64,000 nucleotides of DNA from Gammaproteobacteria bacterium (GTDB lineage: Bacteria > Pseudomonadota > Gammaproteobacteria > UBA4575). Below are positions 40,586 through 61,126 of the stretch, piece after piece. Location: positions 608,001 through 672,000 of the forward strand of contig CBDCUI010000008.1 of NCBI GenBank assembly GCA_965222615.1, read 5' to 3'. Both the position numbers and the translations under genes were made by a program. Under the pieces are notes generated by a model that was not told the DNA's origin, did not search any database, and saw nothing but the letters and a program-made list of their open reading frames with translations. How positions within the stretch are numbered: position 1 is the first letter of the stretch; each line of letters opens with the position of its first letter.

Positions 40586-41643
40586 CAGTTTGTTTGAGGT
40601 TATATGGTCAAGTGAATAAGTGCATACGGTGGATGCCTAGGCGGTAGAAGGCGATGAAGGACGTGGTAGTCTGCGATAAGCCTCGGTTAGCTGACAAACT
40701 AGCGTTTACCCGAGGATGTCCGAATGGGGAAACCCGATCACTTCGGTGGTCATCGCTATCTGAATTCATAGGATAGTGAAGCGAACTCGGGGAACTGAAA
40801 CATCTAAGTACCCGAAGGAAAAGAAATCAACCGATATTCCCTTAGTAGCGGCGAGCGAACGGGGAGTAGCCCTTAAGCTTGTTGCTTGCTAGTAGAACAC
40901 TCTGGAAAGTGTGGCCAAAGACGGTGATAGCCCGGTATACAAAAGCACGGATCAAGTAAATTCGAGTAGGACGGGACACGTGAAATCTTGTCTGAATATG
41001 GGGGGACCATCCTCCAAGGCTAAATACTCTCTACCGACCGATAGCGAACTAGTACCGTGAGGGAAAAGTGAAAAGAACCCCGGTGAGGGGAGTGAAATAG
41101 AACCTGAAACCGTATGCATACAAGCAGTGGGAGCCTGTCTTTGGATGGGTGACTGCGTACCTTTTGTATAATGGGTCAGCGACTTACTTTCAGTGGCGAG
41201 CTTAACCGCATAGGGAAGGCGTAGGGAAACCGAGTCTTAATTGGGCGAATCAGTCGCTGGGAGTAGACCCGAAACCGGGCGATCTATCCATGGTCAGGGT
41301 GAAGGTAGGGTAACACCTGCTGGAGGCCCGAACCGGGTAATGTTGAAAAATTATCGGATGAACTGTGGATAGGAGTGAAAGGCTAATCAAGCTCGGAGAT
41401 AGCTGGTTCTCCTCGAAAGCTATTTAGGTAGCGCCTCGTGTCTAACTCTAGGGGGTAGAGCACTGTTATGGCTAGGGGGTCATCCCGACTTACCAAACCA
41501 TTGCAAACTCCGAATACCTAGAAGTTCAATCACGGGAGACACACTGCGGGTGCTAACGTCCGTAGTGGAAAGGGAAACAACCCAGACCGCCAGTTAAGGT
41601 CCCCAAATCACAGCTCAGTGGGAAACGATGTGAGAAGGCTAAA

Positions 41644-41705
<62 letters not shown>

Positions 41706-41760
41706 GAGTCGGCCTGCGCGGAAGATTTACCGGGGCTAAGCTGTGTACCGAAACTGCGGG

Positions 41761-42205
41761 TTCAGAAGACAGATTACAGAGGACTGAAGACAAATGAAGA
41801 AAGTGATTAAACAAGTTGAAGACTTAGAAGTTTTTCAAAAAGCGTATAAATTGTCATTGGAATTGCATGGTGCAAGTTTGGGCTTTCCAAAACATGAACA
41901 ATATCATGGCATTGCAGATCAAATACGCAGAGCAAGTGAAGGCATTTGCGCCAATCTTGCAGAAGGTTTTGGGAAACAAAGTTATTCAAAAGTTGAATTT
42001 AAACGTTTCATAGCAATGGCAATTGGTTCGGCAGATGAAATTAGGTTATGGCTAAGTTATTGCAATGACCTTAAATATTTAACTGAATCTGAAGTTAGAA
42101 ACTATAGAAACGAATACCAAACCATTGCAAAAATGCTTTCAGGTTTGCATAAAGTTTGGAACTAATCATATTCTGAGTTCCGTTTTCTGTAATCTGTCTT
42201 CTGGA
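41761..42205 (+). mobile_element. Intervening sequence (IVS) in 23S helix 45
   Basis: Lies between ACCGAAACTGCGGG and GGTAGAGGAGCG; perfect 18-bp stem 41763-41780 / 42186-42203 encloses an ORF. Confidence 0.92.
41794..42165 (+). CDS. Four-helix-bundle 23S rRNA IVS protein (S23/IVP family)
   Basis: EDLEVFQKA..FPKHEQY..DQIRRAS..ICANLAEG..F.RFI..A.GS..E. Confidence 0.93.
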   Translation: MKKVIKQVEDLEVFQKAYKLSLELHGASLGFPKHEQYHGIADQIRRASEGICANLAEGFGKQSYSKVEFKRFIAMAIGSADEIRLWLSYCNDLKYLTESEVRNYRNEYQTIAKMLSGLHKVWN

Positions 42206-42835
42206 CGGTAGAGGAGCGTTCCGTAAGTCTGTGAAGGTAAATTGAGAAGTTTGCTGGAGATATCGGAAGTGCGAATGCTGACATGAGTAACGATAATGCA
42301 GGTGAAAAACCTGCACGCCGAAAGCCCAAGGGTTCCTGCGCAACGCTAATCGGCGCAGGGTTAGTCGGTACCTAAGGCGAGGCCGAAAGGCGTAGTCGAT
42401 GGAAAACAGGTTAATATTCCCGTACTTTGTATTACTGCGATGGGGGGACGGAGAAGGCTAGGCATACCGGACATTGGTTGTTCCGGGGAAAGTATGTAGG
42501 CAGAGAACTTTGGCAAATCCGGGTTCTTAATGTCGAGATACGAGACCATCGGTCTTTGTACCGAGAAGTTGCCGGTGCCATGCTTCCAAGAAAAGCCTCT
42601 AAGCTTCAGGTAATACGAAACCGTACCCCAAACCAACACAGGTGGGCAGGATGAGAATTCTAAGGCGCTTGAGAGAACTCGGGTGAAGGAACTAGGCAAA
42701 ATAGCACCGTAACTTCGGGAGAAGGTGCGCCCTTGTTGGTGAGTAATTTACTTTACAGGCTGATGGGGGCCGCAGTGACCAGGTGGCTGCGACTGTTTAC
42801 TAAAAACATAGCACTCTGCTAACTCGCAAGAGGAC

Positions 42836-42870
<35 letters not shown>

Positions 42871-42903
42871 TAATTGATGGGGTTAGCTTCGGCGAAGCTC
42901 TTG

Positions 42904-42950
<47 letters not shown>

Positions 42951-43604
42951 TAATATCGGTTGAAGATGTTACATTTTCAAAAAACGCTAGCCTTAGTAAA
43001 ACCGAACTATATGCGGGAAACTCCTCTAAAGCTGTTCAGTACTCGTTGATCTCTGTGATCTTCAGTAAAAATCTGACAGACATGTGGACAATCCGCAGGG
43101 AAGACTTGAATGTACCAAGAACCCTCAGAGACTTTACGTTCGGGAGGTGCCTATGAAACTAGATGCACAATGGATTACAGGTTTTGTGGATGGAGAAGGT
43201 TGTTTTCATGTGGGAATAAATCCTCATAAGGAAATGACTGTAGGATTTCAGGTGTTACCTGAATTTACCGTTGTACAACATAAACGCGATGTGCAAGTAC
43301 TTCATGCTCTGAAAAGTTATTTTGGATGTGGTGTGGTTCGAGTGAACCATGGCGACCGAATGGCCTATCGGGTAAGAAGCATCAAACATTTGTTAGAACA
43401 CATTGTTCCATTTTTCATCAAGCACCCGCTGAAAACGAAAAAGAATGTGGATTTTAGAAAATTCCGAAAAATTCTTTTAAAGATGGAAGCGGGCGATCAT
43501 TTAACATATGAGGGTGTCGAAGCAATTCGAACTATTTCAAGTGAAATGAATCGAGGTACTTCAAGATAAAGTCCGGCTTTTCTGGAAACAGATTAGATTA
43601 ACCG
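42951..43604 (+). mobile_element. Group I intron at 23S position L1931
   Basis: Exon ..CCTAAGGT | intron ending in G | AGCGAAATTCC; P1 GCCTTAG with U.G pair, P10 CGCT; core TGCGGGAA, AATCCGCAG, TCAGAGACTTTA, AAGATAAAGTCC. Confidence 0.93.
43153..43569 (+). CDS. Single-motif LAGLIDADG homing endonuclease in L1931 intron
   Basis: WITGFVDGEGCF..F.V.Q..L..LKSYFGCG..PL.TKK..DF; RBS GGAGG before ATG 43153. Confidence 0.95.
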   Translation: MKLDAQWITGFVDGEGCFHVGINPHKEMTVGFQVLPEFTVVQHKRDVQVLHALKSYFGCGVVRVNHGDRMAYRVRSIKHLLEHIVPFFIKHPLKTKKNVDFRKFRKILLKMEAGDHLTYEGVEAIRTISSEMNRGTSR

Positions 43605-43624
43605 AGCGAAATTCCTTGTCGGGT

Positions 43625-43893
43625 AAGTAAAATTGCCCCTTTTGGGAGCGATCCCAAATCGCAAACCGGCTCAAATCGGTGAAGCCTTCCTGCGTGTGCA
43701 GCGCAAAAGGTAATACCGAGGGTAAGATTATTATTAAATTGATAATCCCTGTAACGACTCAAGGGTGAGATCCTTGGATGGATGAAAATCCATAATACGC
43801 CGGCCCTGTTTATGATTGCGAATGAGGTTTCTCAACTCACGCAAACAGGTGAAGGTATAGTCTGTGCCCTTTGGAAACATTGGGAATAACATG
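43625..43893 (+). mobile_element. ORF-less group I intron at 23S position L1951
   Basis: Exon ..TGTCGGGT | intron ending in G | AAGTTCCGACC; P1 GGGU/GCCC; core GTAACGACT and AAGGTATAGTCT. Confidence 0.9.
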
Positions 43894-44182
43894 AAGTTCC
43901 GACCTGCACGAATGGCGTAACGATGGCCACACTGTCTCCACCCGAGACTCAGTGAAATTGAAATCGCTGTGAAGATGCAGTGTTCCCGCGGCTAGACGGA
44001 AAGACCCCGTGAACCTTAACTACAGCTTTACATTGAACTTTGAGCCTGCTTGTGCAGGATAGGTGGGAGGCTTCGAAGCAGTCACGTCAGTGGTTGTGGA
44101 GCCAACCTTGAGATACCACCCTGGCATGTTTGGAGTTCTAACCCAGGCCCGTTATCCGGGTCGGGAACAATGTATGGTGGGT

Positions 44183-44225
<43 letters not shown>

Positions 44226-44346
44226 ACGAAGGTACCCTAAGTACGGTCGGAAATCGTGCGGTTTGTGCAAAGGCATAAGGGTGCTTGACTGCGAGACAGA
44301 CACGTCGAGCAGGTACGAAAGTAGGTCTTAGTGATCCGGTGGTTCT

Positions 44347-44402
<56 letters not shown>

Positions 44403-44431
44403 ACTGCCCAAGAGTCCATATCGACGGCAGT

Positions 44432-44509
<78 letters not shown>

Positions 44510-44671
44510 TGGTACGCGAGCTGGGTTTAGAACGTCGTGAGACAGTTCGGTCCCTATCTACCGTGGGTGTTTGAGACTTGAAGGAAGCTGCTCCTAGTAC
44601 GAGAGGACCGGAGTGGACGTACCTCTGGTGTTCCGGTTGTCACGCCAGTGGCATTGCCGGGTAGCTATGTA

Positions 44672-44711
<40 letters not shown>

Positions 44712-44916
44712 CACCTGAAATGAGGTCTCACTGGGAACTTGATTCCCCTGAAGGGCCCTGGAAGACGACCAGGTTGATAGGCTGGGTGTGGAAGTTCAGT
44801 AATGGATGAAGCTAACCAGTACTAATTGCCCGTGCGACTTGACCATATAACACTCAAGCAAATTGAGTGTGTAGCGAATACTTCAAAACACACGCCTAGT
44901 TGGTTTTCAAAATTTT

Positions 44917-45014
44917 GTTTAATTTCATATGGGGTCAGACTCGATTGCATCTGGCCTTTGGGTGAGAAGGTGTTTGATTCAGATCAATCGAGTCTGACCC
45001 CATTGAAATTAAAC
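44917..45014. repeat. Long REP-like inverted repeat in the 23S-5S spacer
   Basis: ATGGGGTCAGACTCGATTG ... CAATCGAGTCTGACCCCAT, extendable to about 30 bp with one bulge. Confidence 0.8.
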
Positions 45015-45023
45015 ATACCAGTT

Positions 45024-45142
45024 TGCCTGGCGGCAACAGAGCGTTGGTACCACCCGATCCCATCCCGAACTCGGAAGTGAAACGGCGCATCGCCGATGGT
45101 AGTGTGGGGTCTCCCCATGTGAGAGTAGGACACTGCCAGGCA
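45024..45142 (+). rRNA. rrf: 5S rRNA
   Basis: TGCCTGGCGGC..CCGAACTCGGAAGTGAAAC..GATGGTAGTGTGGGG..GCCAGGCA. Confidence 0.97.
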
Positions 45143-45503
45143 TTAATACCTAAAGCCTCGTAATTGATTACGGGGCTTTTTTATTTTTTGGAAGTAAATT
45201 TAAGTCGCAGTGTGATTACTGGTATGCGAGCCGCATCCGTGCGGCTGACTCTCATTCCTATATCCATGTAGTCACCAGCCAGGCATTAAAATAAATAAGG
45301 CTCTAGAGTTTTACTTTAGAGCCTTATTTTTATTACGAAGATGAAATTTACAGGCAGTGTAATTTACGGGCCGGTTTGCCGAAGTCCATTTCGGCAGGCT
45401 CTCACTCGCACATCCATGCGCACGTGTGGCATTAAAATACAAAGACCCTAAAGTTTTGCTTTAGGGTCTTTTTTATTATGAAGATGAATTTATAGGTAGT
45501 GTG
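45140..45503 (+). terminator. Three tandem diverged terminator units after 5S
   Basis: GCATTAA + hairpin/T-tract at about 45152, 45296 and 45441; palindromic CATCC elements between them. Confidence 0.8.
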
Positions 45504-46004
45504 TGTGGTTTTCCGTGACAGTTTACCTCATCCATAAAGTGGTCTCTTATTTCAAAAGCTTTAATACTTTTAATGTTGAAAGTTTTAAAGATTCGTTTTT
45601 TTGAGAGATTGCGTATAAAAGGATTTATCATCCGGTTATTTTTAATAAAAATTTATAACTATTAACAGTTCAAATATATATTTTTTAACTAGCATCGAAA
45701 TTTAGTAACGAATTGATATAGAAAATAAATATTCAAGTATGGAGTATTTTAATAAAACTAGGTAAACCAACTTATTACATTATAAATTTAATTATTATAT
45801 TGAATTCGATTAATTTTAGTATAAGAGTGAAAGGATAAAAGATTAATAAACGTTACTATTATTTATTAGAGGAATTTAGCAACGATACAATTAGTTTGAT
45901 AGTATATTTCTTGAGTGAGATGTGTGTGCAAGAATTGCATTAATCTAACACCTTAAAATCTTAAGCTTAAAGTAATTTACAAAAATAACTAATAAGGGAG
46001 GGAC

Positions 46005-47255
46005 ATGAAGTTTTTTGTAAACTCAACACCAATAGTTGAAGAAGAATTTCGAGTTGGAAAGAAGACTGCAGGGGTCACAGAGCTTCCAAATCAAAATAAA
46101 GCAAAATTTTCAGCAAGCTTTACTAAATCTAAGATAAGAATCAAGACAAGTGCATCTACATCTGTTTTGCCTGAAGTAGTACGAGTTAAAAATGCTTCAT
46201 GGGCATTTAGTACTCGACGGGTGTCAATAGAAGCAGTCCAGTCTGTTTTGCCTCTTGAGGGTTCGCCTAATGCGGGGGATTTGGTTTTAGCACGTGTAGA
46301 CATGATTGGACATCATTCTGGATTGCAACAACCAAATGGAAGGCGTAAATCAATGTTCATTGGCGATGAAATTGTAGTTGCTTATGGTAACCGCTATGCA
46401 TCAAATCAATTTGAATCTTTTGTACCTGAAACACTTGGCCCTTGTCACCTTGTAGCAGGCGGCGGTATCGCATCACGCGCAAGGTCATGGCATAACCGAA
46501 TTTCAAAAGGTCCAACACATATTACGCCATTAGGTTTGTTAGGTGATCGAAATGGTAGGCGTATGAACTTAACCCAATTTGCGTTACAACCACTAAAAAA
46601 CATAAGTGATAAATTTCCAACTGCTATTGCAGTGGTGGGTACTGGAATGGATTCTGGCAAGACACAAAGTGCCGCGTATTTGGTTAAAGGATTAATTGCA
46701 GCTGGTTTGAAAGTGGCCTATGCAAAAATAACAGGAACAGGGGCAGGTGGAGATACTTGGTTGCTTAGAGATGCTGGTGCATTTCCAGTTTTGGATTTTA
46801 CCGATGCTGGTGCTCCTTCAACATATTTAATGACTAAAAAAGAAATTGAAAATATTTTAGTGACCTTAGTAGGGCATATATCTACTAAAAATGTAGACAC
46901 AATCATTTTAGAAATCGCTGATGGCGTATATCAACAAGAAACTGCTGAATTACTTCGCTCAGATATTTTTGATCAAATTGTTGGAGGAGTGCTGTTTGCA
47001 GCAAGAGATTCGATGGGGGCGAGTGCAGGTGTTCATTGGCTAAGTAATTATCCAACCCCTGTGCTCGCGTTAAGCGGTGTGTTATCTGCAGCGCCCTTGC
47101 AAGTTAAAGAGGCAACAGAGGCATTGCGTTTACCCGTATATAACCGTGAAGAGCTGGCTACTGCAAAAATTGCATTTCAGATCATGAATCGTGCGTGGCA
47201 GAAACATCATGAATTAAATTGTGAACCCCGGAAATTATATATAAATGTCGATTAA
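46005..47255 (+). CDS. DUF1611-like P-loop protein
   Basis: YGNRYA, LVAGGGIAS, GTGMDSGKT P-loop, KITGTGAGGD, DFTDAG..STY, EIADGVYQ.ET. Confidence 0.72.
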   Translation: MKFFVNSTPIVEEEFRVGKKTAGVTELPNQNKAKFSASFTKSKIRIKTSASTSVLPEVVRVKNASWAFSTRRVSIEAVQSVLPLEGSPNAGDLVLARVDMIGHHSGLQQPNGRRKSMFIGDEIVVAYGNRYASNQFESFVPETLGPCHLVAGGGIASRARSWHNRISKGPTHITPLGLLGDRNGRRMNLTQFALQPLKNISDKFPTAIAVVGTGMDSGKTQSAAYLVKGLIAAGLKVAYAKITGTGAGGDTWLLRDAGAFPVLDFTDAGAPSTYLMTKKEIENILVTLVGHISTKNVDTIILEIADGVYQQETAELLRSDIFDQIVGGVLFAARDSMGASAGVHWLSNYPTPVLALSGVLSAAPLQVKEATEALRLPVYNREELATAKIAFQIMNRAWQKHHELNCEPRKLYINVD

Positions 47256-48144
47256 TGGAAACTCTAATGATACTCGATGGATGCTGCCAAAAGGCAAAGT
47301 CCTAAGACGTACTATGCAAGGCGCGCCGAATTTTGACTATCTTATTTACTTACCAACTTCAGTTAAAAATAATGCACCTTTATTAATCGCAGTGCATGGG
47401 CTCTCACGCAATACGCATGAACAAATGCGTGTATTTTCAAAATTGAGTGAGTTATATGGAGTTATTGTAGCCGCTCCAAATTTTTCAGAAGAACAATTTA
47501 AAGACTATCAGCGTCTAGGCCGGATAGGTTTGGGTTTGCGTGCAGATTTATTCTTAAATGAGTGCATAGTGGAAATTGGGCTTTTAACAGGAGCTGAAGT
47601 TTCAAAAATATTTCTATTTGGATTTTCAGGTGGCGCACAATTTGCTCACCGTTATTTAATGGTTCACCCACATCGTGTGGCCCGGGCAGTAGTAGTAGGT
47701 GCAGGTTGGTATACATTTCCAGATGCAAAGTTAAAATTTCCGTATGGCATCCGATCTACAAAAAGGTTACCTGGGGTAATTTTTAATCCTGAAGAATTTT
47801 TGACAATACCTGTATCAGTATTAGCTGGTGAGCACGATACATCTATGACTGCGCTTCGACGAAATATCCGAGTAGATGAGCAACAAGGTAAAAACAGGGT
47901 GCAACGTGCTCGTAATTGGGTAGTCGCAATGCGAGAAGCAGCAAAAATGTTTGGCATGTTGCCGATGGTGACCTTTACAGAAGTGCCTCATATTAACCAT
48001 TCATTTACCCAATTTTATCGGCATGGCGCGTTGACTGAAAGAGTATTTAATTCACTATTCGATATTCCATTTTCTTCACTTAAACAAACAAAGTCAGCAG
48101 TGCAAGAAGGTGATAATGCTATTGCTGAAAATGTGATGAATTGA
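47245..48144 (+). CDS. Cytoplasmic alpha/beta hydrolase, PahZ1-like
   Basis: VHGLSRN, GFSGGAQFAHRY, GAGWYTFP, FPYG, QQG..R..R, catalytic His in NHSF; no signal peptide. Confidence 0.78.
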   Translation: MSINGNSNDTRWMLPKGKVLRRTMQGAPNFDYLIYLPTSVKNNAPLLIAVHGLSRNTHEQMRVFSKLSELYGVIVAAPNFSEEQFKDYQRLGRIGLGLRADLFLNECIVEIGLLTGAEVSKIFLFGFSGGAQFAHRYLMVHPHRVARAVVVGAGWYTFPDAKLKFPYGIRSTKRLPGVIFNPEEFLTIPVSVLAGEHDTSMTALRRNIRVDEQQGKNRVQRARNWVVAMREAAKMFGMLPMVTFTEVPHINHSFTQFYRHGALTERVFNSLFDIPFSSLKQTKSAVQEGDNAIAENVMN

Positions 48145-48171
48145 TTTGTTTTAATTTGTAATAACTGTTTT

Positions 48172-49410
48172 ATGACTAAAGCTAATAGCAATCGATCAAA
48201 TAACACTAATTTGACTAATCAAAAAAAATTAGTTGTTAGGCCGGTACATATTGAACGTTCGGCAAAACATGAAAATGCTATTGGTATGGCGCAGTTGCCC
48301 CCGCCAAAATTTACCAATAAAAATTATAGGAACCGAACTTTAAAATGGATGTTGGTTTGTATTCTGCTAATTCTTTTATCAATTCCATTTGTAACATGGC
48401 TTCAATATCAATCAAGCAATATTATTTCACGTAATGCTATTGTGCGTGGAAATCTCGCTGAAATTGGCACCCGTATTAATGGTGTTCTTATGGATATAGA
48501 TGTGCCAGCAGGGGAGAAAGTATGGTCAGGACAGGTTTTGGCAAAACTTGAGCATCAGCATATTAAGGCTGAGGGCGAAGAAGCAAAAGCAGAGTTGGAG
48601 GGTTTTGCTCGCGAATTAGAAGTAGAACAGATGGCGATTGAGCATGAAAAATTATTATTACAAAACAAAATTCAAGAAGCAGGTGCCAACCTAGCTGCAG
48701 CACAAGCTGAAGTTACTGCAGCTAAAACTCGTGCACGAGAAGCCGAAAATTTTTATCAAGCACGCAAAAAACTACTCAGTGAACAGCTAATTTCTCGCGA
48801 AGATGTGCGTGATGCAAATAGTAAACGTAGGACAGCGGCTGCTTTGGTCCGAGTTGCAGAGGCCAATTATTTAGCAGCTAAATCTGCACAAGAGAATGCA
48901 TCATTAGACTCAGATGGTTTGTTAATTCGTAAGCAACGAATCGGTGTATTGGAAGCAAATGTTGCACGTGCGAAGGCTCGTCTGGCAAAAGCTGATGCAG
49001 ATTTACAAGGAACACACATTCGAGCTCCAGGCGATGGCGTGGTCATTAGATGGCTGATACAGCAAGGTGGCTCTGTAGAAGTTGGGAAACCAGTACTATC
49101 CATGTGGGTAGGTGATGAGGTATGGATAGAAGCGTGGATAGATGAAGATGAAATTTCACATATACAAGTTGGTGATATTGCAACGGTCACATTGCAATCG
49201 TTTCCAGGAAAAGAATTTATGGGTGTAGTAGAAAAAATTGGTTTAACCACAGATTTTCAAACGCCTGCACCAGATATTCCTCAACCGCGCTTTACACGTA
49301 TGCGTGGCGCACCTGTAATAGGTGTATTAGTAAGACTAAATGATCCACCTGACAAGTTGCTGCCTGGTTTATCAGCCGTAGTGGCAATACAAAATAGTGT
49401 AGGGGGATAA
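48172..49410 (+). CDS. HlyD/EmrA-family membrane fusion protein
   Basis: TM anchor, lipoyl halves (V..GE.V..GQVL; IRAP.DGVV), coiled coil, LLPGLSAVV. Confidence 0.9.
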   Translation: MTKANSNRSNNTNLTNQKKLVVRPVHIERSAKHENAIGMAQLPPPKFTNKNYRNRTLKWMLVCILLILLSIPFVTWLQYQSSNIISRNAIVRGNLAEIGTRINGVLMDIDVPAGEKVWSGQVLAKLEHQHIKAEGEEAKAELEGFARELEVEQMAIEHEKLLLQNKIQEAGANLAAAQAEVTAAKTRAREAENFYQARKKLLSEQLISREDVRDANSKRRTAAALVRVAEANYLAAKSAQENASLDSDGLLIRKQRIGVLEANVARAKARLAKADADLQGTHIRAPGDGVVIRWLIQQGGSVEVGKPVLSMWVGDEVWIEAWIDEDEISHIQVGDIATVTLQSFPGKEFMGVVEKIGLTTDFQTPAPDIPQPRFTRMRGAPVIGVLVRLNDPPDKLLPGLSAVVAIQNSVGG

Positions 49411-49413
49411 AAT

Positions 49414-51303
49414 ATGCCAACTAATATAGATAGTTCAGATGCAGTAGTACCAAATCCATTCGAATTAAATTTTTGGGATAAATATATTCGACCAAAGCGA
49501 AATATTCATCCTATAGGAATTGGGTTACTTTCTCTTTTAGCGTTTATACCTCTAATAATGGTATTTTCGCGGCTCTTAGCTTATCCAGGGATGCAGCCGC
49601 AAAATATTTTTGGTTTAGATTGGTTGCACTTATTTGGGACATATTTAAATCAATCAGTTACTTTGCAATGGGTTCCACCAGATGATCAATGGACCATACT
49701 GTACTTGCTCTTATTGCCTCTAAGCGTTCTTATCATAACCATTGCGCGTTTAACTTTTGGGTTACGAATTTTAGGTTTTCGAGCGATTTTGATTGCTGTG
49801 GGATTTCAGGAAATTGGCTTTTTGCCAAGTATTCTATTAATCATATCCGTAATAGCTACTATTATTTTAGTGCGTCCTGTATTGAGGCAAATACGTCTGC
49901 CTTTATATGCGCGCGTTTCGGTGATTTTATGCATTTCTGCGATGTTTATGATTGGCGCATTATTTTTAGGATCATGGTTGCGTTCAGAAATAATTTGGAA
50001 TGTTGCCTTTTTCCCAGTAATTATTTTAGCAATGTTAGCAGAGAGTGTAGCCAGAACAATTGATAGAGAAAGTATACAGACAGGTCTTTGGCGTTTATTT
50101 TGGACAGTAGTTTTAGCAATAATCATTGCTTTAATTTGTAAATTACCCGTTATACGAGAGGCCGCTTTATTTTTCCCTGAATTAATGATTACACAGTTAG
50201 TATTTGTCGTATTTGTTTCAGAGTTTTTTGATTTACGTTTATTACAAGGCTGGCAAGAACGCATTGGGAACAAGAAGAAAAGCAAATTAGTGGCTATACC
50301 TGCTACAGCAAAGATAGCTGTTGTACGAAACCGGTGGAATTCAAATGTACTTGGACGGCTAGGAATTCCAATTTCAAACAAAGCGAGAGTTAAATCAGTT
50401 CAGCGTTTAGTAAATTCATTACGTAATTTAGGCTATTCCGTTCGAGTATTTGAAAGTGATATTTCATTGTTTCGTGAATTACGTAAGTTTATACCTACTG
50501 ATCCGTTAACCGGTCATCCGGGTGGCATGGTGTTAAATTTAGCGAGAGGTGTGCAAGGTGTTGGTAAGCTAAGTCACTTGCCTGCTATGTTAGAAATGTC
50601 AGGAGTTGCTTATACAGGTCCTGATCCAGTTAGCCATACACGAATATTAGATCGTTATATGATGCTTACTTTATTGCGAGAGTCTGATATTCCAGTCCCA
50701 AAGTTTAAATGTATTTCAAGCATATTTTCAGATATAAGTGATCTACGTTTTCCAATAGCAATACGACCACGTTGCGAATCGGATGCAAAATGGAATATTG
50801 TTAGAACTCCCGAAGATTTTACTGCGACAGCAAATGAAGTTTTACAAACTTATAGGCAAGAACTTGTTGTTGAAGAATTTCACTTCAGTCAAGAGATACG
50901 CGCTTCATTAATTGGTAATAATGTAGTCGAATGTTTTCCACTATTACAGCATAGCATGAGGGGAAGCAAAAAAATCTGTCCAGCACCTTTAGACGAAACA
51001 CTTACAAAAAAGATTGAAGAGACTGCTAAACAAGCTTACCGCGCAATTGGATGTCGAGATTATGCTCGAATTGACATCAGAATAAATGAAGAAAATGAAC
51101 CGTGCATTATCCAAATACATACTATAGGTATTTTTGCCCGCAATGGGTCATTTGCTCAATCAGCAAAACAAGCTGGATATTCATTTGAAGATTTAATGCA
51201 TCGAGTTATTCAGTTAGCTTGGTTACGTTATGGCGTGACGTCTAATATCTCATGCATGGATGTGGATGAAAATCAGACCTTATCTGAGGTTGAAGTAGCT
51301 TGA
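49414..51303 (+). CDS. 7TM_transglut-type membrane domain fused to D-Ala-D-Ala-ligase-like ATP-grasp (degenerate)
   Basis: LLLPL..GLRILG..R..FFPVIIL..E..FPEL TM block; LEMSGVAYTG, CPAPL, GCRDYARIDIR; DK, KP and ExN replaced by DR, RP and QIH. Confidence 0.78.
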   Translation: MPTNIDSSDAVVPNPFELNFWDKYIRPKRNIHPIGIGLLSLLAFIPLIMVFSRLLAYPGMQPQNIFGLDWLHLFGTYLNQSVTLQWVPPDDQWTILYLLLLPLSVLIITIARLTFGLRILGFRAILIAVGFQEIGFLPSILLIISVIATIILVRPVLRQIRLPLYARVSVILCISAMFMIGALFLGSWLRSEIIWNVAFFPVIILAMLAESVARTIDRESIQTGLWRLFWTVVLAIIIALICKLPVIREAALFFPELMITQLVFVVFVSEFFDLRLLQGWQERIGNKKKSKLVAIPATAKIAVVRNRWNSNVLGRLGIPISNKARVKSVQRLVNSLRNLGYSVRVFESDISLFRELRKFIPTDPLTGHPGGMVLNLARGVQGVGKLSHLPAMLEMSGVAYTGPDPVSHTRILDRYMMLTLLRESDIPVPKFKCISSIFSDISDLRFPIAIRPRCESDAKWNIVRTPEDFTATANEVLQTYRQELVVEEFHFSQEIRASLIGNNVVECFPLLQHSMRGSKKICPAPLDETLTKKIEETAKQAYRAIGCRDYARIDIRINEENEPCIIQIHTIGIFARNGSFAQSAKQAGYSFEDLMHRVIQLAWLRYGVTSNISCMDVDENQTLSEVEVA

Positions 51304-51304
51304 T

Positions 51305-52909
51305 ATGGTTTCTCAGTTTTGGAAGCAGTTAAAGTTCTATATGTCTCAATGCTTGGGATTGCTTTACTTATCGTTAATACTGTTTTGTGGAGGCGAAGAA
51401 AATCTGTATGCAAAAAATGATCAAGATTTGATAATAAATAAAGAAGATATTTCCAAGACTGATTTTTTATCAAAAATTTCAACTGCAAATTTACTAAATG
51501 ATGAAGGAATTCATTCTTCAGGATTTAGTGAATTCAAATTTAAAGCAAGAGATGGCCGAATATTGCGTGTATACGTATATCGTGCAACGAAGTTTGACAG
51601 CGAAAATGGGCCCATATGGTTTGTGATGCATGGTGCGAGCCGTGATGCGCAAGGTTATTTGCAAATTGCAGCGTCAATCGCTGAACGTTATCAGGCTTTA
51701 TCTATTGCAATTGAATTTTCAAAAGAAAATTACCCTAAAGGTGACCAGTATACTTTAGGGGTTACAAAGTATGGACGCGTAAACGAATATGCTTATAAGC
51801 AAGGTCGTTGGCGCAATCCTGAAGAATTTTTGTATATTGAATTAGAGAGAGTGTTTTTGGCATTAATTTCTAAGCTAAACGGACATCAACAAGGCTATTT
51901 TGTTTTTGGGCATAGTGCTGGTGCGCAATTTACCCATCGCTTAATTACATTTAATCGTTATGCAAGTGTTGTTCATGCTGTTGCAGCAAATTCTGGGTGG
52001 TATACCTTGCCATTGTTTGAATTGGGCAAACAATATGCATTGCCTTATGGTTTGCGTGGAAGCCCTCTATCTCAATCAGATGTCAAAGAAATATTTAGTA
52101 AGAATCTTACTATTTTAGTAGGCACAGAGGATACTAAATCGCATCGTGAAGATGCACTTTTGAGGCACACGAGTGAGGCGATGACACAGGGTAAAACGCG
52201 TTATGAACGTGGTTTAAATTATTTCAACATCAGCAAGCGACATGCAACATCCTTGCAATCGGATTTTGTTTGGCGATTAGCTTATGCCCCAGGGGCCGGT
52301 CATAAGGCAAGAGAGGTCATGGCATCGGCTGCATTTCTAATGTTTTCTAAGGGTCAAACAGCTTGTAAGCCTTCGGCTTTTAAAAGTAGTGATTCGTTGC
52401 AGTTTAGTGAAATTCTTATTCATCCTCCACGTGATGATTATGGTGACTCAAATGCTGACGGTGAGCGTAGTGCAATAGAAGATGAATTTATTGAAATAAA
52501 AAATATTGGTGAATTACCAGTATGTTTGACAGGTTGGAAATTGGAGGATGGTCACGGCCGAGGAGGACATTTGTTTCCAATTGGATCTGCACTTAATCCG
52601 GGTGAAATGGTTGTGGTTTTTGGTGGGGGTATTCCAACTGGTAATTTTGGAAATTCTGAAGTTTACACGGCCAGTTCTAGTAGCGGCCTAAATTTAACAA
52701 ATAAAGGTGACAAAATCACACTGAAGGATTTGAATAATACAATTGTGAATCAAGTTTCTTGGGGGAATTGTGCAGGACTACACTGTGCAGATGAACATAT
52801 TGCATTGGATAAAAATTCATTAGGTTCTGTAGTAAATAACAAAAAAGAGAATAGTAATTGGCAAACACATTCGGAAATATCAAATCTACAGTTTTCACCA
52901 GGATTTTGA
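51305..52909 (+). CDS. Exported PahZ1-like hydrolase with C-terminal lamin-tail-like domain
   Basis: FVMHGASR, FGHSAGAQFTHR, AVAANSGWYTLP, PYGL, LTILVGTEDT, EAMTQG..R.ERG, APGAGH; then SEIL..DEFIEIKN..LTGWKL..LNLTNKGD. Confidence 0.8.
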   Translation: MVSQFWKQLKFYMSQCLGLLYLSLILFCGGEENLYAKNDQDLIINKEDISKTDFLSKISTANLLNDEGIHSSGFSEFKFKARDGRILRVYVYRATKFDSENGPIWFVMHGASRDAQGYLQIAASIAERYQALSIAIEFSKENYPKGDQYTLGVTKYGRVNEYAYKQGRWRNPEEFLYIELERVFLALISKLNGHQQGYFVFGHSAGAQFTHRLITFNRYASVVHAVAANSGWYTLPLFELGKQYALPYGLRGSPLSQSDVKEIFSKNLTILVGTEDTKSHREDALLRHTSEAMTQGKTRYERGLNYFNISKRHATSLQSDFVWRLAYAPGAGHKAREVMASAAFLMFSKGQTACKPSAFKSSDSLQFSEILIHPPRDDYGDSNADGERSAIEDEFIEIKNIGELPVCLTGWKLEDGHGRGGHLFPIGSALNPGEMVVVFGGGIPTGNFGNSEVYTASSSSGLNLTNKGDKITLKDLNNTIVNQVSWGNCAGLHCADEHIALDKNSLGSVVNNKKENSNWQTHSEISNLQFSPGF

Positions 52910-52972
52910 ATAAAGTGGTCTTAATTTGAGAAAGCCGAGTTATAAATTTAATTAAGGATTTCGTGAAATAAT

Positions 52973-55186
52973 ATGTCATTAGATACATCAATTTCAGGCA
53001 ATGAAAAAATAATTCGCAATCAATCCATGCAACTAATGGGAAGCACTATTTTGTATGGTAGTAATGTATATCATGAAGATACAGTTCTTCTGCAAAAGGT
53101 GCAGATGGGTATTTTACGCGGACAGTCTACCACATTAGCTGGTAAAGAATTCGCGCAGGATTATTTAGATCGCTTTATTAGTAAATTGAATGTTGTGCCG
53201 GCTTATAAATTTAATACTAATTTTCTAAATAAGCTACATTCTTCTGAAGGCGCAACATTTGAGGAAACGTTGTTAGAAAGTATTTTGAATATTGAAGCAG
53301 CAATTGCATATGTTACTCATGATTTTATACCAATTGAATTCACGAAGATTGTCGAGAAGTTTTCTTCTGATGAGGTATCACTAATCTGGGAATCTCATAA
53401 TCCGATTATATCTCGTGAAGCAGCAAAGGTTGCTCTCCATGGTTTGCTTGGTCTCCTGTCTAAAGAGATATGTGCAGGGTTAAGTTTACATAGTGTTAAT
53501 TTCGAACATTCATTCTCCAAATTAAAAGAACGAGCAAAAAAATGGCAAATCTCAACTACTACTTCAGTAATTTTGATGGAGGCAAGGCAAAGAAAAATTC
53601 CATATGAGACATTGGGGGCACCATTATTACGTTTAGGACAGGGTAATAAACAAAAGATGATATATGCATCTATACCTGAAAATACTTCATTTATAGCTGC
53701 TCATCTATGTAGAAATAAACGTAAATCAAATCGATATTTGATGCAACAGGATCTTCCAGTGCCCAAGCAAATTAAAGTAAATACTGTGGAGAAAGCTATA
53801 GAAGCTGCCAAAAGATTGGGTTTCCCTGTAGTTTTAAAGCCGATAAGAGGTAAACAGGCAAATGGTGTGACTGTGGGTTTGAATAGTAGTCAGGAGATAG
53901 CTCGCGCATTTAATCGTGCTCAAACAAGTTCTACTAACGTGATTATGGAAAAATTTGTTCAAGGTGATGTGTATAGACTGCTTGTTATAAACGGCAAATT
54001 TATAGCTGCATTAAAACTTGAACCACCCAGTGTAATTGGTGATGGTAGAAAGTCTATTTCTAAATTAATTGGGGAACTAAATAATGATTCACGTAGAAAT
54101 GATATTTTACTTTATAAAGTAGAAATTGATGATGAATTATTAGAAGTAATTGCTCGTAACAAGTATTCGCTTCATACAATTTTAAAGGAAGGTGAAATTC
54201 TTCGTTTACGTTCTGCGGCAAATGCTGCAATAGGTGGTTTCCATACCGATGTAACTGACATTGTGCATCCTGATAATCAGGAAATGGCAATACGTGCCGC
54301 TAATCTAATGGGGTTATCTGTAGGAGGTGTTGACTTTATCAGCAAAGATATAGGTAGTTCGTATAAAGAAATTGGCGGGAGCATTATAGAGATGAATGCC
54401 CGCCCTGGTTTTTGTATGCATACATATCCGAGATATGGCAAAACACAACCTGTTGCTAAAGCTATGCTTGATATGGTTTTTCCTGGTGGTGACAACGGCC
54501 AAATTCAGAAACTTATAGTAGTAGGATCTCGCCGAACCAATGCCATTGCTCAAAAAACGGAAAAAATAATCCATATGAAAGGCGTTTCAGTAGGTTTATT
54601 AACAAAAAGTAAAATTTGCATAAATAATCATTACGAAAAAATCGGTAAATCTAAAACACGTGTCGCTCTATATAGGTTATTGCGAAATCCAGCTGTAGAA
54701 AGTGTAATCACAACAACTTCACCTAATCGTATTGTTGAGAATGGTTTGCAGCTTTCTCGAGTTAATATAGCAGCGATTCTGAATTCAGAAGACAGTATAG
54801 ATCCTGAAACTTATCAACAGTGTATAGAGGTAATTGCAAAGTCTAAACCAAATACGATTATATTGGATGCAGAAAATCAAGCTGCATTAAAATGTTTGAA
54901 TGAAAAAGAGCATGAAAATATTGTATTAATTGCTATAGATACCAATATTGCAAACGCTGTGCTTAAAAATAATAAGCCCAACTTAATCATTATGAGAGAG
55001 AAAAAAGATATTCATGGGTCGATTGTTATACGAAATCAAGAAAGAATTCTAGGCAAAATACTGTTGAGAGAAATTGATTGTAAGAACATAGAAGAAGTGC
55101 GTCATGTAAAAAACAAAATGTTTTCTATAGCGATGGCATATTCATATGGAATCTCAATTAAGAAAATAAAACAAGCTTTACTATAG
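52973..55186 (+). CDS. Cyanophycin-synthetase-like ATP-grasp ligase with degenerate Mur-ligase domain
   Basis: ST..I..EA..R.IP, LG.G.KQ, FPVVLKP, YRLLVINGK, V.GDG..I..LI..N.D.RR, DVTD.VHP.N, GVDFI, IEMNARPGF.MH; Mur P-loop reads GSRRTNA. Confidence 0.82.
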   Translation: MSLDTSISGNEKIIRNQSMQLMGSTILYGSNVYHEDTVLLQKVQMGILRGQSTTLAGKEFAQDYLDRFISKLNVVPAYKFNTNFLNKLHSSEGATFEETLLESILNIEAAIAYVTHDFIPIEFTKIVEKFSSDEVSLIWESHNPIISREAAKVALHGLLGLLSKEICAGLSLHSVNFEHSFSKLKERAKKWQISTTTSVILMEARQRKIPYETLGAPLLRLGQGNKQKMIYASIPENTSFIAAHLCRNKRKSNRYLMQQDLPVPKQIKVNTVEKAIEAAKRLGFPVVLKPIRGKQANGVTVGLNSSQEIARAFNRAQTSSTNVIMEKFVQGDVYRLLVINGKFIAALKLEPPSVIGDGRKSISKLIGELNNDSRRNDILLYKVEIDDELLEVIARNKYSLHTILKEGEILRLRSAANAAIGGFHTDVTDIVHPDNQEMAIRAANLMGLSVGGVDFISKDIGSSYKEIGGSIIEMNARPGFCMHTYPRYGKTQPVAKAMLDMVFPGGDNGQIQKLIVVGSRRTNAIAQKTEKIIHMKGVSVGLLTKSKICINNHYEKIGKSKTRVALYRLLRNPAVESVITTTSPNRIVENGLQLSRVNIAAILNSEDSIDPETYQQCIEVIAKSKPNTIILDAENQAALKCLNEKEHENIVLIAIDTNIANAVLKNNKPNLIIMREKKDIHGSIVIRNQERILGKILLREIDCKNIEEVRHVKNKMFSIAMAYSYGISIKKIKQALL

Positions 55187-55408
55187 GGATTGCTAAAGCT
55201 CTGGAATTTTTCCAAGGCTTTTAAAATAGGCAAATTAGTTCTCTAAGGTGTCAGTAATAATGTGAGAATTCACAATGTCTATGCGTACAGACTAAAGAAT
55301 GACTAACACTTCATTTTGTTCTTGCTGACCAACTTTGTGTTTGTCGCAAGCGGCTAAAGCATCGTCTACGACAGCATTAAATTCCATTTCATTAATGTCT
55401 ATGTCTTT

Positions 55409-55631
<223 letters not shown>

Positions 55632-55960: not shown

Positions 55961-56602
55961 ATGGCGATAGTCGGGAAATCTATAGGTCTGCTAGCTAGCG
56001 TTTTTGTCGCTGGGATTATTTTTTGGGGCGGATTCAATTGGTCTTTGGAATTAACCAATACAGAGTCGTTCTGCATTTCATGTCATGAGATGCAAGAATA
56101 TGTATATAAAGAATATAAGACGACTAGGCATTATTCCAATAACACAGGGGTAAGGGCTACTTGCCCTGATTGTCATGTGCCTAAAGAGTGGATTCATAAA
56201 GTAGTACGAAAGGTAAGTGCAACTAACGAGCTTTATCATAAGTTACTGGGCACTATCGATACGCCGGAAAAATTCAACAATAGACGTCCAAAGTTGGCAC
56301 AAATTGTGTGGGATAGTATGCGTGCTTCAGATTCCCGCGAATGTCGCAACTGTCATGGGCTTGAATTCATGAACCTTGAAACACAGGCTCTAGCCTCACG
56401 TACTATCCATAAACTCTCAATTGAATGGGGAAAAACCTGCATAGACTGTCACCAGGGCATAGCTCATACGCTGCCTACTGGTTTTAATAATGAAGCAGAA
56501 ATCAGCGATCAGCATGAACGAATAGAAAAACAAAATGTAGACTGTAGCCTTTGTCACGAAGGTCTGACTAAAGTCCCAGCCGACGATGGGTGGGAGGACT
56601 GA
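55961..56602 (+). CDS. napC: NapC/NirT membrane cytochrome c with a fifth CxxCH
   Basis: FWGGFN..TNTESFCISCHEM, CPDCHVP, DSRECRNCH, CIDCHQGIAH, plus CSLCH. Confidence 0.9.
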   Translation: MAIVGKSIGLLASVFVAGIIFWGGFNWSLELTNTESFCISCHEMQEYVYKEYKTTRHYSNNTGVRATCPDCHVPKEWIHKVVRKVSATNELYHKLLGTIDTPEKFNNRRPKLAQIVWDSMRASDSRECRNCHGLEFMNLETQALASRTIHKLSIEWGKTCIDCHQGIAHTLPTGFNNEAEISDQHERIEKQNVDCSLCHEGLTKVPADDGWED

Positions 56603-56655
56603 TTTGTAATGAGTTAATTCGGTTTATAGGACAGAAAAAACTGTATGCATATTGG

Positions 56656-56669
56656 TTGATTTATATCAA
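56656..56669. promoter_or_regulatory. FNR/ANR-type binding site
   Basis: Perfect TTGAT-N4-ATCAA in the spacer before the molybdoenzyme operon. Confidence 0.6.
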
Positions 56670-57096
56670 CATGAATAATGGATAATTACCACATAATTTT
56701 TAGATAAGTCTATTAAGAATGGATTGCTATAAACTTGACTACGTTGATTTATCTATATGGTTTGTTATTTGCATTATGGATAATGGTAGTGTTGCTAAGG
56801 ATGAGTGTGCATAGAACACTAATCAAATTGCTCAATATGAGAATATAGATAGGGGGGTAAAAGTATTTATCAATGTTTCTGAGTTGTGAAGGGGAGACAA
56901 GCGCATTTACAGTGCTCATTACTGTCAAAAATCCTTCCAAAATTGCGCCCATATAACATGATACTTTCTAAAATTACATCTAGGCACAAATAGATCGATA
57001 CTGATATTCAACCTAAAAAATAATACTTTGTACTTGCAAAATATGAATGTAATTAGAAACGTAACACATTAGTTTTACTTCAACTTGGAGAATAGT

Positions 57097-57753
57097 ATGG
57101 TTAGTTATCAACACACTACAATTTGGTTTATTGCTCTAGTCATGCTTGTGGTTGGTTATTTTAATGTTGCTGCAGCTGCCGATGAGGCGACTATTAAAGA
57201 AGGTGAGCTACTTTACAATCAAAACTGTGGAGTTTGTCACCAAGCTGATGCAATTGGTAAGCCTGGATTTGCACCATCACTAACCAATAAAGAATTGCTA
57301 AGTGTTGCTTCGGACAAATTTTTCGAGAGTACTATTCGCGACGGACGTCCAGGTACTGGTATGCCACCGTTTGCACATTTGGGTCGTTCTAAAGTAAAAG
57401 CCATTGTTGTGTATCTACGTTCCCATAGCAAATTACCTGAACGTTCAGCGGAAGTAGATGCACAGCCAGATGCGCATGGAGATCCGCGCTTAGGTAAGCA
57501 ATGGTATGACAATATTTGTTCGACTTGTCATGGCGTGAACGGCGATGGTTATGCAGCCGGTGCCACTGGCACAGCAATTGGCACAGAAGGTTTTTTATCC
57601 AAAGTTTCTGATGGATTCATCCGTACCACAATCAAAGAAGGTCGCTCCAATACTCGAATGCTGGGATTTTCGGGAGCAAATGGTTTGGCCAATCTAACCG
57701 ATCAAGAAATCGACGACATTATTGTATATCTACGCACCTTAGCGAAAAACTAA
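57097..57753 (+). CDS. Periplasmic diheme cytochrome c
   Basis: Signal peptide, CGVCH..GMPPF and CSTCH..RM.GF domains. Confidence 0.9.
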   Translation: MVSYQHTTIWFIALVMLVVGYFNVAAAADEATIKEGELLYNQNCGVCHQADAIGKPGFAPSLTNKELLSVASDKFFESTIRDGRPGTGMPPFAHLGRSKVKAIVVYLRSHSKLPERSAEVDAQPDAHGDPRLGKQWYDNICSTCHGVNGDGYAAGATGTAIGTEGFLSKVSDGFIRTTIKEGRSNTRMLGFSGANGLANLTDQEIDDIIVYLRTLAKN

Positions 57754-57766
57754 TGAGAGTTTAACT

Positions 57767-60496: not shown

Positions 60497-60537
60497 GTAA
60501 ACACTAGGACAAGCAAGAAGCTGTCCGCAAAGATACC

Positions 60538-61116: not shown

Positions 61117-61126
61117 GTGTTGTACG

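Follow-up and report, generated by a model that had tools for sequence, protein, structure and literature searches.

The stretch analysed here, which we call the window, comprises 64,000 nucleotides of contig CBDCUI010000008.1 (GenBank assembly GCA_965222615.1, positions 608,001 to 672,000) from a gammaproteobacterium of the lineage UBA4575. At 46005-55186 of the window, six genes (g1 to g6) lie in an island that was acquired horizontally, as one unit. The genes suggest that the island serves to make and export a non-ribosomal oligo- or poly-amino acid, acidic and probably based on aspartate, and to cleave it on either side of the membrane. We hold this reading tentatively, at a little less than an even chance; it is favoured because a backbone-extending relative of the cyanophycin synthetase CphA, two relatives of the polyaspartate hydrolase PahZ1 and an export pair are coupled at the locus.

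Polyaspartate is an industrial biodegradable polymer. To our knowledge, no natural polyaspartate pathway is known, and the only known polyaspartate hydrolases have been found via synthetic material. By uniting PahZ1 relatives, a putatively backbone-only relative of cyanophycin synthetase and export genes in one acquired unit, the locus opens two questions, namely what PahZ1 is for and whether biology can make a bare polyaspartate backbone.

Six genes in an acquired island

The open reading frame list of the window places six frames, all on the forward strand, in 46005-55186, with the same coordinates as in a first-pass annotation made from the DNA letters. The gaps between successive genes from g1 to g6 are -11, 27, 3, 1 and 63 bases, and the co-oriented, closely packed arrangement described in that annotation was thus confirmed. 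A hairpin scan detected no terminator-like hairpin of more than six pairs within 46005-55186, and two hairpins of 12 to 14 pairs were located upstream of the genes, at 45152-45179 and 45441-45471. The island and its features are as follows.

45419..55242, + strand: inserted island, 9,824 bp long, following the 5S rRNA gene
45441..45471, + strand: terminator-like hairpin of 14 pairs, left end of the island
46005..47255, + strand: g1, 416 aa, P-loop protein with a C-terminal domain like dethiobiotin synthetase (DTBS) and DUF1611
47245..48144, + strand: g2, 299 aa, cytoplasmic PahZ1-like alpha/beta hydrolase, its start overlapping g1 by 11 bases
48172..49410, + strand: g3, 412 aa, HlyD/EmrA-type periplasmic adaptor
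49414..51303, + strand: g4, 629 aa, 7TM_transglut domain fused to a cytoplasmic Ddl-like ATP-grasp fold
51305..52909, + strand: g5, 534 aa, exported PahZ1-like hydrolase with a C-terminal lamin-tail domain
52973..55186, + strand: g6, 737 aa, CphA-like ligase with an N domain lacking HxxEH, an intact G domain and a truncated, dead M domain

In public run X3, a relative's contig (depth 29) connects 45418 directly to 55243 and omits the 9,824 bases. The island (about 9.8 kb) is also missing in three other genomes, one of the same genus (G001) and two of other genera (G006 and G007), in which the flanks are contiguous and the sequence after the 5S gene runs into the equivalent of window 55232-55398. 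It is because of its absence from these three genomes and from the relative's contig that we regard the island as acquired in one piece. A Logan contig of 10,322 bases from run X1 spans 45117-55438 with zero differences, and since it holds host-type flank at both ends of the island, the latter is not an assembly join via rRNA repeats. Neither direct or inverted repeats at the island borders nor an integrase was found. The hairpin at 45441-45471 is followed by approximately 530 AT-rich bases, which presumably contain a promoter.

Across 55 further genomes of the order, which belong to one family and 11 genera, no orthologue of g6 was found, and one of these genomes carries a canonical CphA of 875 aa. 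The absence of a cyanophycinase, first stated for the window, extends to the entire genome (99.8% complete), where a hidden Markov model (HMM) search with TIGR02069 gave no match anywhere. The genome likewise contains no CphA1 and no second CphA besides g6.

Ligase, hydrolases and membrane proteins

The g6 protein scored 436.6 bits against the cyanophycin synthetase model NF010623 (cut-off 877), covering model positions 1-711 of 871, and 395.8 bits against TIGR02068 (cut-off 850). It is nearer to CphA1 structures (E 1.2e-87) than to the CphA2 chains 8fxh (5.5e-46) and 7ta5 (6.4e-46), and the decay of its M domain therefore looks independent of that in CphA2. The sequence stops at about CphA1 residue 714. 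A large protein search placed g6 in a clade with 16 other clusters (724-763 aa, 32-45% identity); the next relatives were canonical CphA1 proteins of approximately 930-960 aa with about 30% identity. The Mur-ligase Pfam domains PF08245 and PF02875 were absent across the clade. In a tree, the 17 clade members were separated from 52 CphA1 sequences (every second row of P0018-P0120; CphA2 not included) by one bipartition with a support of 1.0 and a long branch. By these comparisons, the clade appears to be a new kind of CphA relative, rare and cleanly separate.

Residue roles were taken from main-text passages of PMC9427784 and PMC9262961, and the columns were counted in the alignment of the 17 clade members and the 52 CphA1 sequences. 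The numbering is that of TeCphA1.

K220, K261, R309, N394 (catalytic core): retained by 16-17 of 17 clade members; 52 of 52 CphA1
K499 (M-site P-loop lysine): 0 of 17 (T522 in g6); 52 of 52 CphA1
HxxEH (N-domain peptidase motif, first 200 residues): 0 of 17; 52 of 52 CphA1
E215 (binds primer Arg side chain): Q, R, H or K in 15 of 17 listed (H244 in g6), with an acidic residue never in the majority; E or D in 51 of 52 CphA1
H267 (G-domain P-loop): Q, K or G in 17 of 17 (Q295 in g6); H in 52 of 52 CphA1
D264 (G-domain P-loop): K or R throughout the clade (17 of 17); D, N or A in 49 of the 52 CphA1 listed
R323 (binds beta-carboxylate of incoming Asp): retained by 5 of 17 (L349 in g6); 52 of 52 CphA1
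R458 (binds alpha-carboxylate of incoming Asp): retained by 1 of 17 (C481 in g6); 52 of 52 CphA1
A454 position (no CphA1 role): new Arg in 15 of 17, four residues before R458; A or G in 52 of 52 CphA1

The equivalents of the catalytic core in g6 are K249, K289, R335 and N417, suggesting that the protein keeps one working active site, that of the chain-extending G domain. The M domain is predicted to be unable to add a side-chain residue, because the P-loop lysine has been lost and the C-terminal Mur domain is missing; the side-chain addition that the first-pass annotation had stated for the Mur domain of CphA1 would thus not apply to g6. The roles of E215, R323 and R458 in the binding of primer and Asp by CphA1 are those given in passages of PMC9427784, and passages of PMC9262961 describe Cx19HxxEH as the primer-generating peptidase site of the N domain, present in most but not all CphA1 proteins. 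The pocket of g6 appears to have been rebuilt, being more basic and no longer suited to an arginine-decorated chain, and bare polyaspartate would be a candidate for the chain. The earlier expectation that the ligase differs from ordinary CphA1 was supported by the sub-cut-off family scores, the structure alignments and the residue counts alike.

Profile searches with g6, for which generic G-domain patterns were used, returned 7 loci from genome contigs and 80 loci from metagenomes (alignment A1). Nearly all were canonical CphA1 in both cases, and none was accompanied by a relative of g1-g5; the count of such relatives at canonical CphA1 loci was 0 of 87. One metagenome contig (L020) carries tandem CphA-like genes at 12-1130 and 1455-3335, the second of which was the sole clade-like match of the metagenome search.

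Both hydrolases found their best relatives among solved structures in PahZ1: g2 matched 9o7u with an E-value of 4.8e-24 and 6ve6 with 1.4e-15, and g5 matched the same chains with 1.2e-36 and 2.7e-36, respectively. The grouping of the two with PahZ1, proposed beforehand, is therefore borne out. In the HMMER alignments, g2 and g5 both match PahZ1 at the Ser of the lipase box, the Asp of the D-T motif, the catalytic His and the second of the three Arg in R-x-R-x-x-R (S126, D194, H249 and R215 in the KP-2 enzyme, with numbering counted by hand from passages of PMC13017698). The g2 protein has GFSGG at 126 and no hydrophobic segment, including at its N-terminus, as expected of a cytoplasmic GxSxG enzyme. 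In g5, an N-terminal hydrophobic segment (11-29) precedes the PahZ1-like part (about 66-348, with GHSAG at 202) and a lamin-tail domain at 379-487 (56 bits, cut-off 34.3), in line with an exported protein.

Passages of PMC13017698 describe the catalytic triad of PahZ1 together with the Arg that positions polyaspartate, and state that the known PahZ1 enzymes come from bacteria degrading synthetic polyaspartate. For the KP-2 enzyme, passages of PMC4456602 report that at least three occupied subsites are needed, that beta-amide bonds are cut and that an L-Asp/D-Asp pair is preferred at the scissile bond. Owing to this last preference, the natural substrate could hold D-residues, which we take as a lead only.

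The g1 protein, labelled DUF1611-like in the first-pass annotation, reached no family cut-off. MobB scored 22.6 bits (cut-off 26.6), AAA_26 matched weakly and DUF1611 gave no match at E<=0.01; among the homologues of g1, DUF1611_C matches lay slightly under the cut-off. The protein has a disordered stretch of 52 residues at its start, a beta-rich N-terminal domain at 60-200 and a Walker A motif at about 212-220. In an AlphaFold2 model with a predicted local distance difference test score (pLDDT) of 89, the C-terminal P-loop domain superimposed on the dethiobiotin synthetase 3of5 with Z 16.4 and a root-mean-square deviation (rmsd) of 2.8 over 178 aligned residues. VIA-align gave Z 16.4 and 14.7 with the DUF1611 structures 2g0t and 2obn and Z 14.3 with DgcN (7xrj), and Foldseek returned only generic SIMIBI P-loop matches for the model. 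Thus, the label stands by modelled fold, for which it seems fair, and not by family HMM. Plasmid homologues of g1 are named 'DUF1611 domain-containing protein' or 'dethiobiotin synthase' by NCBI.

Homologues of g1 are numerous, with 1,384 representatives at E<=0.001 and 352 at E<=1e-30. Fusions of the g1-g2 type occur in both orders (P0362, P0380 and P0499, three among the 150 g1 representatives listed), and g1-like and g2-like genes are adjacent on three plasmids. In Sulfitobacter and Paracoccus, plasmids carry an ABC exporter gene adjoining a g1-like gene (38% identity) and a g2-like gene (37% and 34%). Fusion and adjacency suggest that g1 and g2 are one functional unit. As a separate observation, the g1 homologues P0396, P0398, P0422 and L114:4199-5962 end in part of a Mutator-transposase domain (about positions 18-149 of the 379 in the profile), and this fusion is recurrent and not a one-off disruption.

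The HlyD adaptor assignment of g3, with barrel-sandwich and HlyD_3 domains, was confirmed above the cut-offs of both Pfam and NCBIfam, with 65.5 bits for PF16576 (cut-off 30), 51.8 for PF13437 (22.2) and 101.1 for TIGR01730 (94.9). The protein has a single N-terminal membrane helix at 59-77, and its best family match is the EmrA/EmrK drug-efflux adaptor.

In g4, seven hydrophobic segments within 34-277 coincide with a 7TM_transglut match (PF14402, 69.9 bits, cut-off 25), and a cytoplasmic Ddl-like fold spans about 296-609 (Dala_Dala_lig_C, 69.5 bits, cut-off 24). The membrane domain is of the RloB type, with a match to NF052267 and 29% identity to the genome's own RloB-like protein; the N-terminal periplasmic inactive transglutaminase domain (PF14400) gave no match in g4. 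With the AlphaFold2 model (pLDDT 76), VIA-align ranked Ddl and Van chains first (Z 27-31, top match 3r23 with Z 30.9 and rmsd 2.2 over 280 aligned residues), ahead of other ATP-grasp families (Z at most 21.7).

In Ddl enzymes, E-x-N binds Mg, and an omega-loop Lys/Tyr and an N-terminal GGxSxE motif also have defined roles. An alignment of g4 with the genome's own Ddl and 29 family members showed that g4 reads Q-x-H at the E-x-N metal-ligand positions, that E-x-N occurs in 1 of 30 family members (g4 and the 29), that the omega loop is 10 residues shorter and that GGxSxE is gone. Conservation is strong in the remainder of the ligase-like domain and in the membrane domain, where many charged residues are invariant. 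The stand-alone or split relatives of Bradyrhizobium, NGR234, G591 and G223 keep E-x-N in 4 of 4 aligned cases, a fifth relative (G567) being unaligned there. Thus, of the 7TM/ATP-grasp fusion as first described, both folds are present and the ligase role is doubtful; since the canonical E-x-N ligands are missing, the Ddl-like domain may be a binding or gating module and perhaps no ligase.

Whole-genome samples contained a full-length g4 relative in none of 399 other genomes of the class and none of 400 of the phylum. Matches to the ligase half only were found in three genomes per sample, and the other island genes were absent from their neighbourhoods. A profile search of viral contigs (alignment A2) found no relatives. 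In the ESM Atlas, 7TM_transglut is joined to ATPgrasp_ST/RimK in a cluster of 78 proteins, most of them archaeal (Methanobacteriota), indicating that a fusion of 7TM and ATP-grasp arose in archaea too.

Recurrence, proposed pathway and alternatives

Homologues of g4 with the same fusion form at least 261 clusters (43-56% identity), and those of g5 at least 512, with sources including Thiobacillus, Nitrosomonas, Gemmatimonadales, Polarisedimenticolia and metagenome-assembled genomes of Planctomycetota. Co-location was judged indirectly, by comparing the exact base count of the longest contig of each homologue and requiring concordant sources. Among the listed g4 homologues, 33 of 119 share an identical-size contig and a concordant source with a listed g5 homologue, as do 12 of 24 when contigs of at least 20 kb are counted. 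Of 103 canonical CphA1 contigs, none matched a listed g4 or g5 contig in size. Two size coincidences (7,452 and 2,561) had discordant sources, showing that the test can err for short contigs.

Among the g1 matches listed, the closest (67% identity) lies on an 8,297-base Logan contig, a size shared with g4 and g5 homologues and barely sufficient for g1 to g5. One member of the g6 clade shares a contig size with a g4 homologue (12,114, JGI) and one with a g5 homologue (27,860, Logan; both listed on four contigs). By sequence, then, the island appears to be a composite of conserved sub-modules. The expected conservation of the gene combination in other genomes was thus found in part: sub-modules recur, whereas the full set of six was seen only here.

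Related combinations were found on plasmids. On the Microvirga ossetica plasmid NZ_CP016620.1 (343000-373000, L114), a g1-like gene (39% identity, E 6e-73) stands next to a PahZ1-like gene, and the plasmid also carries two more PahZ1-like genes, an ABC transporter and an HlyD adaptor. A 1,004-aa protein encoded there consists of CphA N and G domains fused to CapA (PGA_cap), which replaces the M domain. Also close to the CphA-CapA gene are a gene for a TPR protein and two more whose products have LPG_synthase_C domains of the aminoacyl-transferase type. Gamma-glutamyltransferase, 7TM protein and active ATP-grasp genes are adjacent on Bradyrhizobium barranii pB323S2b (L112), and an ATP-grasp gene lies beside CapA on the NGR234 plasmid pNGR234a (L113). 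These two loci on rhizobial symbiosis plasmids look like an uncharacterised gamma-glutamyl-type peptide system, and relatives of the 7TM/ATP-grasp pair lie next to genes of the poly-gamma-glutamate type in them, in line with the analogy drawn in the first-pass annotation.

In the pathway that we propose, g6 would be the polymerising ligase: ATP would activate the C-terminal carboxylate of the chain, and the next unit would be added. The chain would carry no arginine, because the g6 pocket has lost the acidic binder of the Arg side chain and gained basic residues. The cytoplasmic proteins g1 and g2 would act as a unit on the same polymer, in primer making, editing or recycling; primer making is looked for outside g6 because the peptidase site that makes primers in CphA1 is missing there. 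The 7TM domain of g4, the adaptor g3 and an outer-membrane channel of the host would form the export route, with the degenerate Ddl-like domain as a cytoplasmic substrate-binding or gating module. Outside, the exported g5 would trim, release or depolymerise the product.

Several points weigh against this pathway. Product, catalysis, export and expression are all deduced from the genes alone, no RNA data set was listed among the public runs that carry the sequence, and the size-matching argument for co-location is indirect and drawn from listed matches. The monomer need not be Asp and could be another unit, because R323 and R458 are not conserved in the g6 clade. The ligase-like domain of g4 lacks E-x-N, no energy source for export is evident and the island contains no outer-membrane component. 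The high predicted isoelectric points of g1, g2, g4 and g6 (9.2-9.8) may reflect mere genome composition. PahZ1-like genes stand alone, with no ligase neighbour, in all three further plasmid loci inspected. Besides the complete set being seen at this locus only, the clusters of g4 and g5 far outnumber the 16 other clusters of the g6 clade, so in most such loci another enzyme must make the substrate.

It is also possible, although unlikely, that the product is a small peptide, i.e. a dipeptide or short oligopeptide with, for example, an antibiotic-like, signalling or metal-binding role, made by g6 and/or g1 and exported via g3 and g4 as an EmrA-like system, with g2 and g5 serving self-protection or maturation. 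The resemblance of the cytoplasmic g4 domain to the dipeptide-forming Ddl/VanA enzymes, the EmrA/EmrK match of g3 and the plasmid modules in which g2, g1 and an ABC exporter occur without an obvious polymerase would all suit such a product. DTBS-like enzymes make single C-N bonds, which would fit g1 into the same scheme. However, the CphA-type G domain is a chain-extending site, and the primer-binding surface of g6 has been remodelled and not lost. Moreover, both g2 and g5 retain the Arg that positions a polyanion, and the requirement of PahZ1 for three or more subsites, according to passages of PMC4456602, marks it as an enzyme of polymers.

We consider it rather improbable that the island is a variant of the Rlo system whose product is never released, namely a polyanion kept in the periplasm or bound to the envelope, or a poly-Asp/Glu tag added after translation, in osmotic or envelope homeostasis. 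The RloB type of the g4 membrane domain is consistent with this, as are the rlo genetics, which parts of 10.1101/2025.03.18.643919 tie to hypo-osmotic tolerance and cell shape. The host genome already has a canonical rloABC-like operon at G000:C9:374496-379041 (L125 4497-9042), which encodes a Zn_protease of the retropepsin type, an inactive transglutaminase-7TM protein with PF14400, ATPgrasp_ST and then an AstE/AspA-like deacylase; its presence speaks for this reading. HlyD adaptors serve export, not uptake, and link the inner membrane toward an outer-membrane duct, so that g3 implies passage beyond the inner membrane. Lamin-tail domains are typical of extracellular proteins, which again argues for g5 acting outside the cell, and the island is a recent accessory acquisition, not housekeeping equipment.

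A cyanophycin variant, in which a CphA2-like g6 would re-polymerise beta-Asp-Arg or beta-Asp-Lys and PahZ1-like enzymes would replace cyanophycinase, has little probability in our view. The layout of N, G and dead M domains is shared with CphA2 (passages of PMC10273328), and the beta-aspartyl amide bonds cut by PahZ1 (passages of PMC4456602) are of the type that links the cyanophycin side chain. On the other hand, g6 is closer to CphA1 than to CphA2, its acidic binder of the Arg side chain has been replaced, the genome holds neither cyanophycinase nor CphA1, and export genes would be pointless for an intracellular nitrogen store. Least probable of all, and hardly to be expected, is scavenging of external polyaspartate-like or polyanionic polymers, with g5 depolymerising outside and the other proteins importing and processing the fragments: it would fit the origin of known PahZ1 enzymes in degraders of synthetic polyaspartate (passages of PMC13017698), but the HlyD adaptor points to export, Pfam and NCBIfam detected no binding protein or importer among the island proteins, and two ligase-type proteins and a cytoplasmic endo-type hydrolase would be superfluous in a catabolic locus.

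The synthesis and export of an acidic polymer, as proposed above, could have wider consequences, which we put forward as speculation with a fairly low probability. On this view, Gram-negative bacteria would secrete free, un-arginylated polyaspartate, possibly with beta links or D-residues, and the island would be the first natural pathway for it. The short CphA clade would represent a third kind of descendant of cyanophycin synthetase, making the bare backbone, with PahZ1-family enzymes as its dedicated depolymerases. Further, 7TM_transglut together with HlyD would be a general class of exporters for polyanionic peptides, whose partner hydrolase (retropepsin, gamma-glutamyltransferase or PahZ1) is matched to the linkage. 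If this were true, the PahZ1-family hydrolases would gain the natural substrate that they have lacked. The locus also offers a working hypothesis for the large unstudied families of 7TM_transglut/ATP-grasp and DUF1611-like/hydrolase proteins and for the unexplained rlo genetics.

Surroundings of the island and comparison with known systems

The island directly follows an rRNA operon that includes two tRNA genes, a 23S gene interrupted by a group I intron, and the 5S gene at 45026-45141. The 23S gene (40606-44846) has 4,241 bases, compared with the 2,925 positions of the model; the intron at 42935-43595 encloses an open reading frame for a LAGLIDADG endonuclease (43084-43569), and approximately 650 more surplus bases are not accounted for by Rfam matches. 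Beyond the right flank, the following remnant was found.

55409..55580, + strand: decayed remnant of the 3' end of an rRNA operon, Rfam large-subunit positions 2480-2632

In this remnant, 55409-55521 (113 bases) is 98% identical to 44396-44508 in the 23S gene, and 55513-55580 (68 bases) is 86% identical to 45000-45071, i.e. the 23S-5S spacer and the start of 5S. The remnant may be older than the island, since the loci of the relatives match it too. Further downstream, a nap-like respiratory cluster at 55961-62167 encodes a NapC/NirT cytochrome, a dihaem cytochrome c, a 909-aa molybdopterin oxidoreductase and two ferredoxin-type proteins, and is unrelated to the island. In run X3, the island-free relative is commoner (depth 29) than the island carrier (depth 2.7), which means that island carriers and island-free strains occur together in one sample. 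Genomes of the host's family measure 1.2-2.9 Mb.

Among known systems, CphA1 (7lgm, 7lgn, 7wac, 7lg5) shares with g6 homologous N and G domains, the first part of M and the catalytic residues of the ATP-grasp. Unlike CphA1, the g6 type is approximately 190 residues shorter (724-763 vs 926-961 aa) and has no cyanophycinase partner in the genome. CphA2 (7ta5, 8fxh) resembles g6 in having an N domain without the peptidase motif, an active G domain and a truncated inactive M domain, as described in passages of PMC10273328 and PMC9262961. However, the M remnant of g6 is longer (about 230 vs 150 aa), the host is not a cyanobacterium, and export and PahZ1-like genes are linked to it; the substrate is probably other than the beta-Asp-Arg of CphA2.

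The PahZ1 enzymes of Sphingomonas KT-1 and Pedobacter KP-2 (6ve6, 9o7u), the nearest solved relatives of g2 and g5, have the triad and the Arg in common with them. In contrast to these enzymes, g2 has no signal sequence and is coupled or fused to a P-loop protein, g5 bears a lamin-tail domain, and both sit in a putative biosynthesis and export locus. Gene context goes unmentioned in the 2026 PahZ1 paper.

According to parts of 10.1101/2025.03.18.643919, the products of the P. aeruginosa rlo operon are a retropepsin, which is secreted and cuts polyglutamate, a 7TM protein of the inactive-transglutaminase type and an ATP-grasp, and deletion of the 7TM protein or the ATP-grasp rescues the loss of secreted polyglutamate-cleaving proteases. 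The island and rloABC both combine a 7TM_transglut protein, a cytoplasmic ATP-grasp fold and an exported hydrolase for a polyanionic peptide. They differ in that g4 has no transglutaminase-like domain and its Ddl fold lacks E-x-N, the hydrolase is a serine alpha/beta enzyme, and the adaptor, the CphA-like ligase and the g1-g2 pair are extra.

A literature search found no published description of this gene combination. The PgsBCA/Cap systems join a cytoplasmic ATP-dependent amide ligase, passage across the membrane and an external depolymerase. Pfam and NCBIfam detected no homologue of PgsB, PgsC or CapA among the six island proteins, and the likeness serves as a working analogy, to which the g4-fold relatives next to gamma-glutamyltransferase or CapA and the CapA-fused CphA-like ligase of Microvirga contribute. 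By analogy, the systems would share one theme: a ligase in the cytoplasm, a 7TM_transglut protein in the membrane and an exported enzyme that hydrolyses an acidic peptide, with the type of hydrolase varying between systems.

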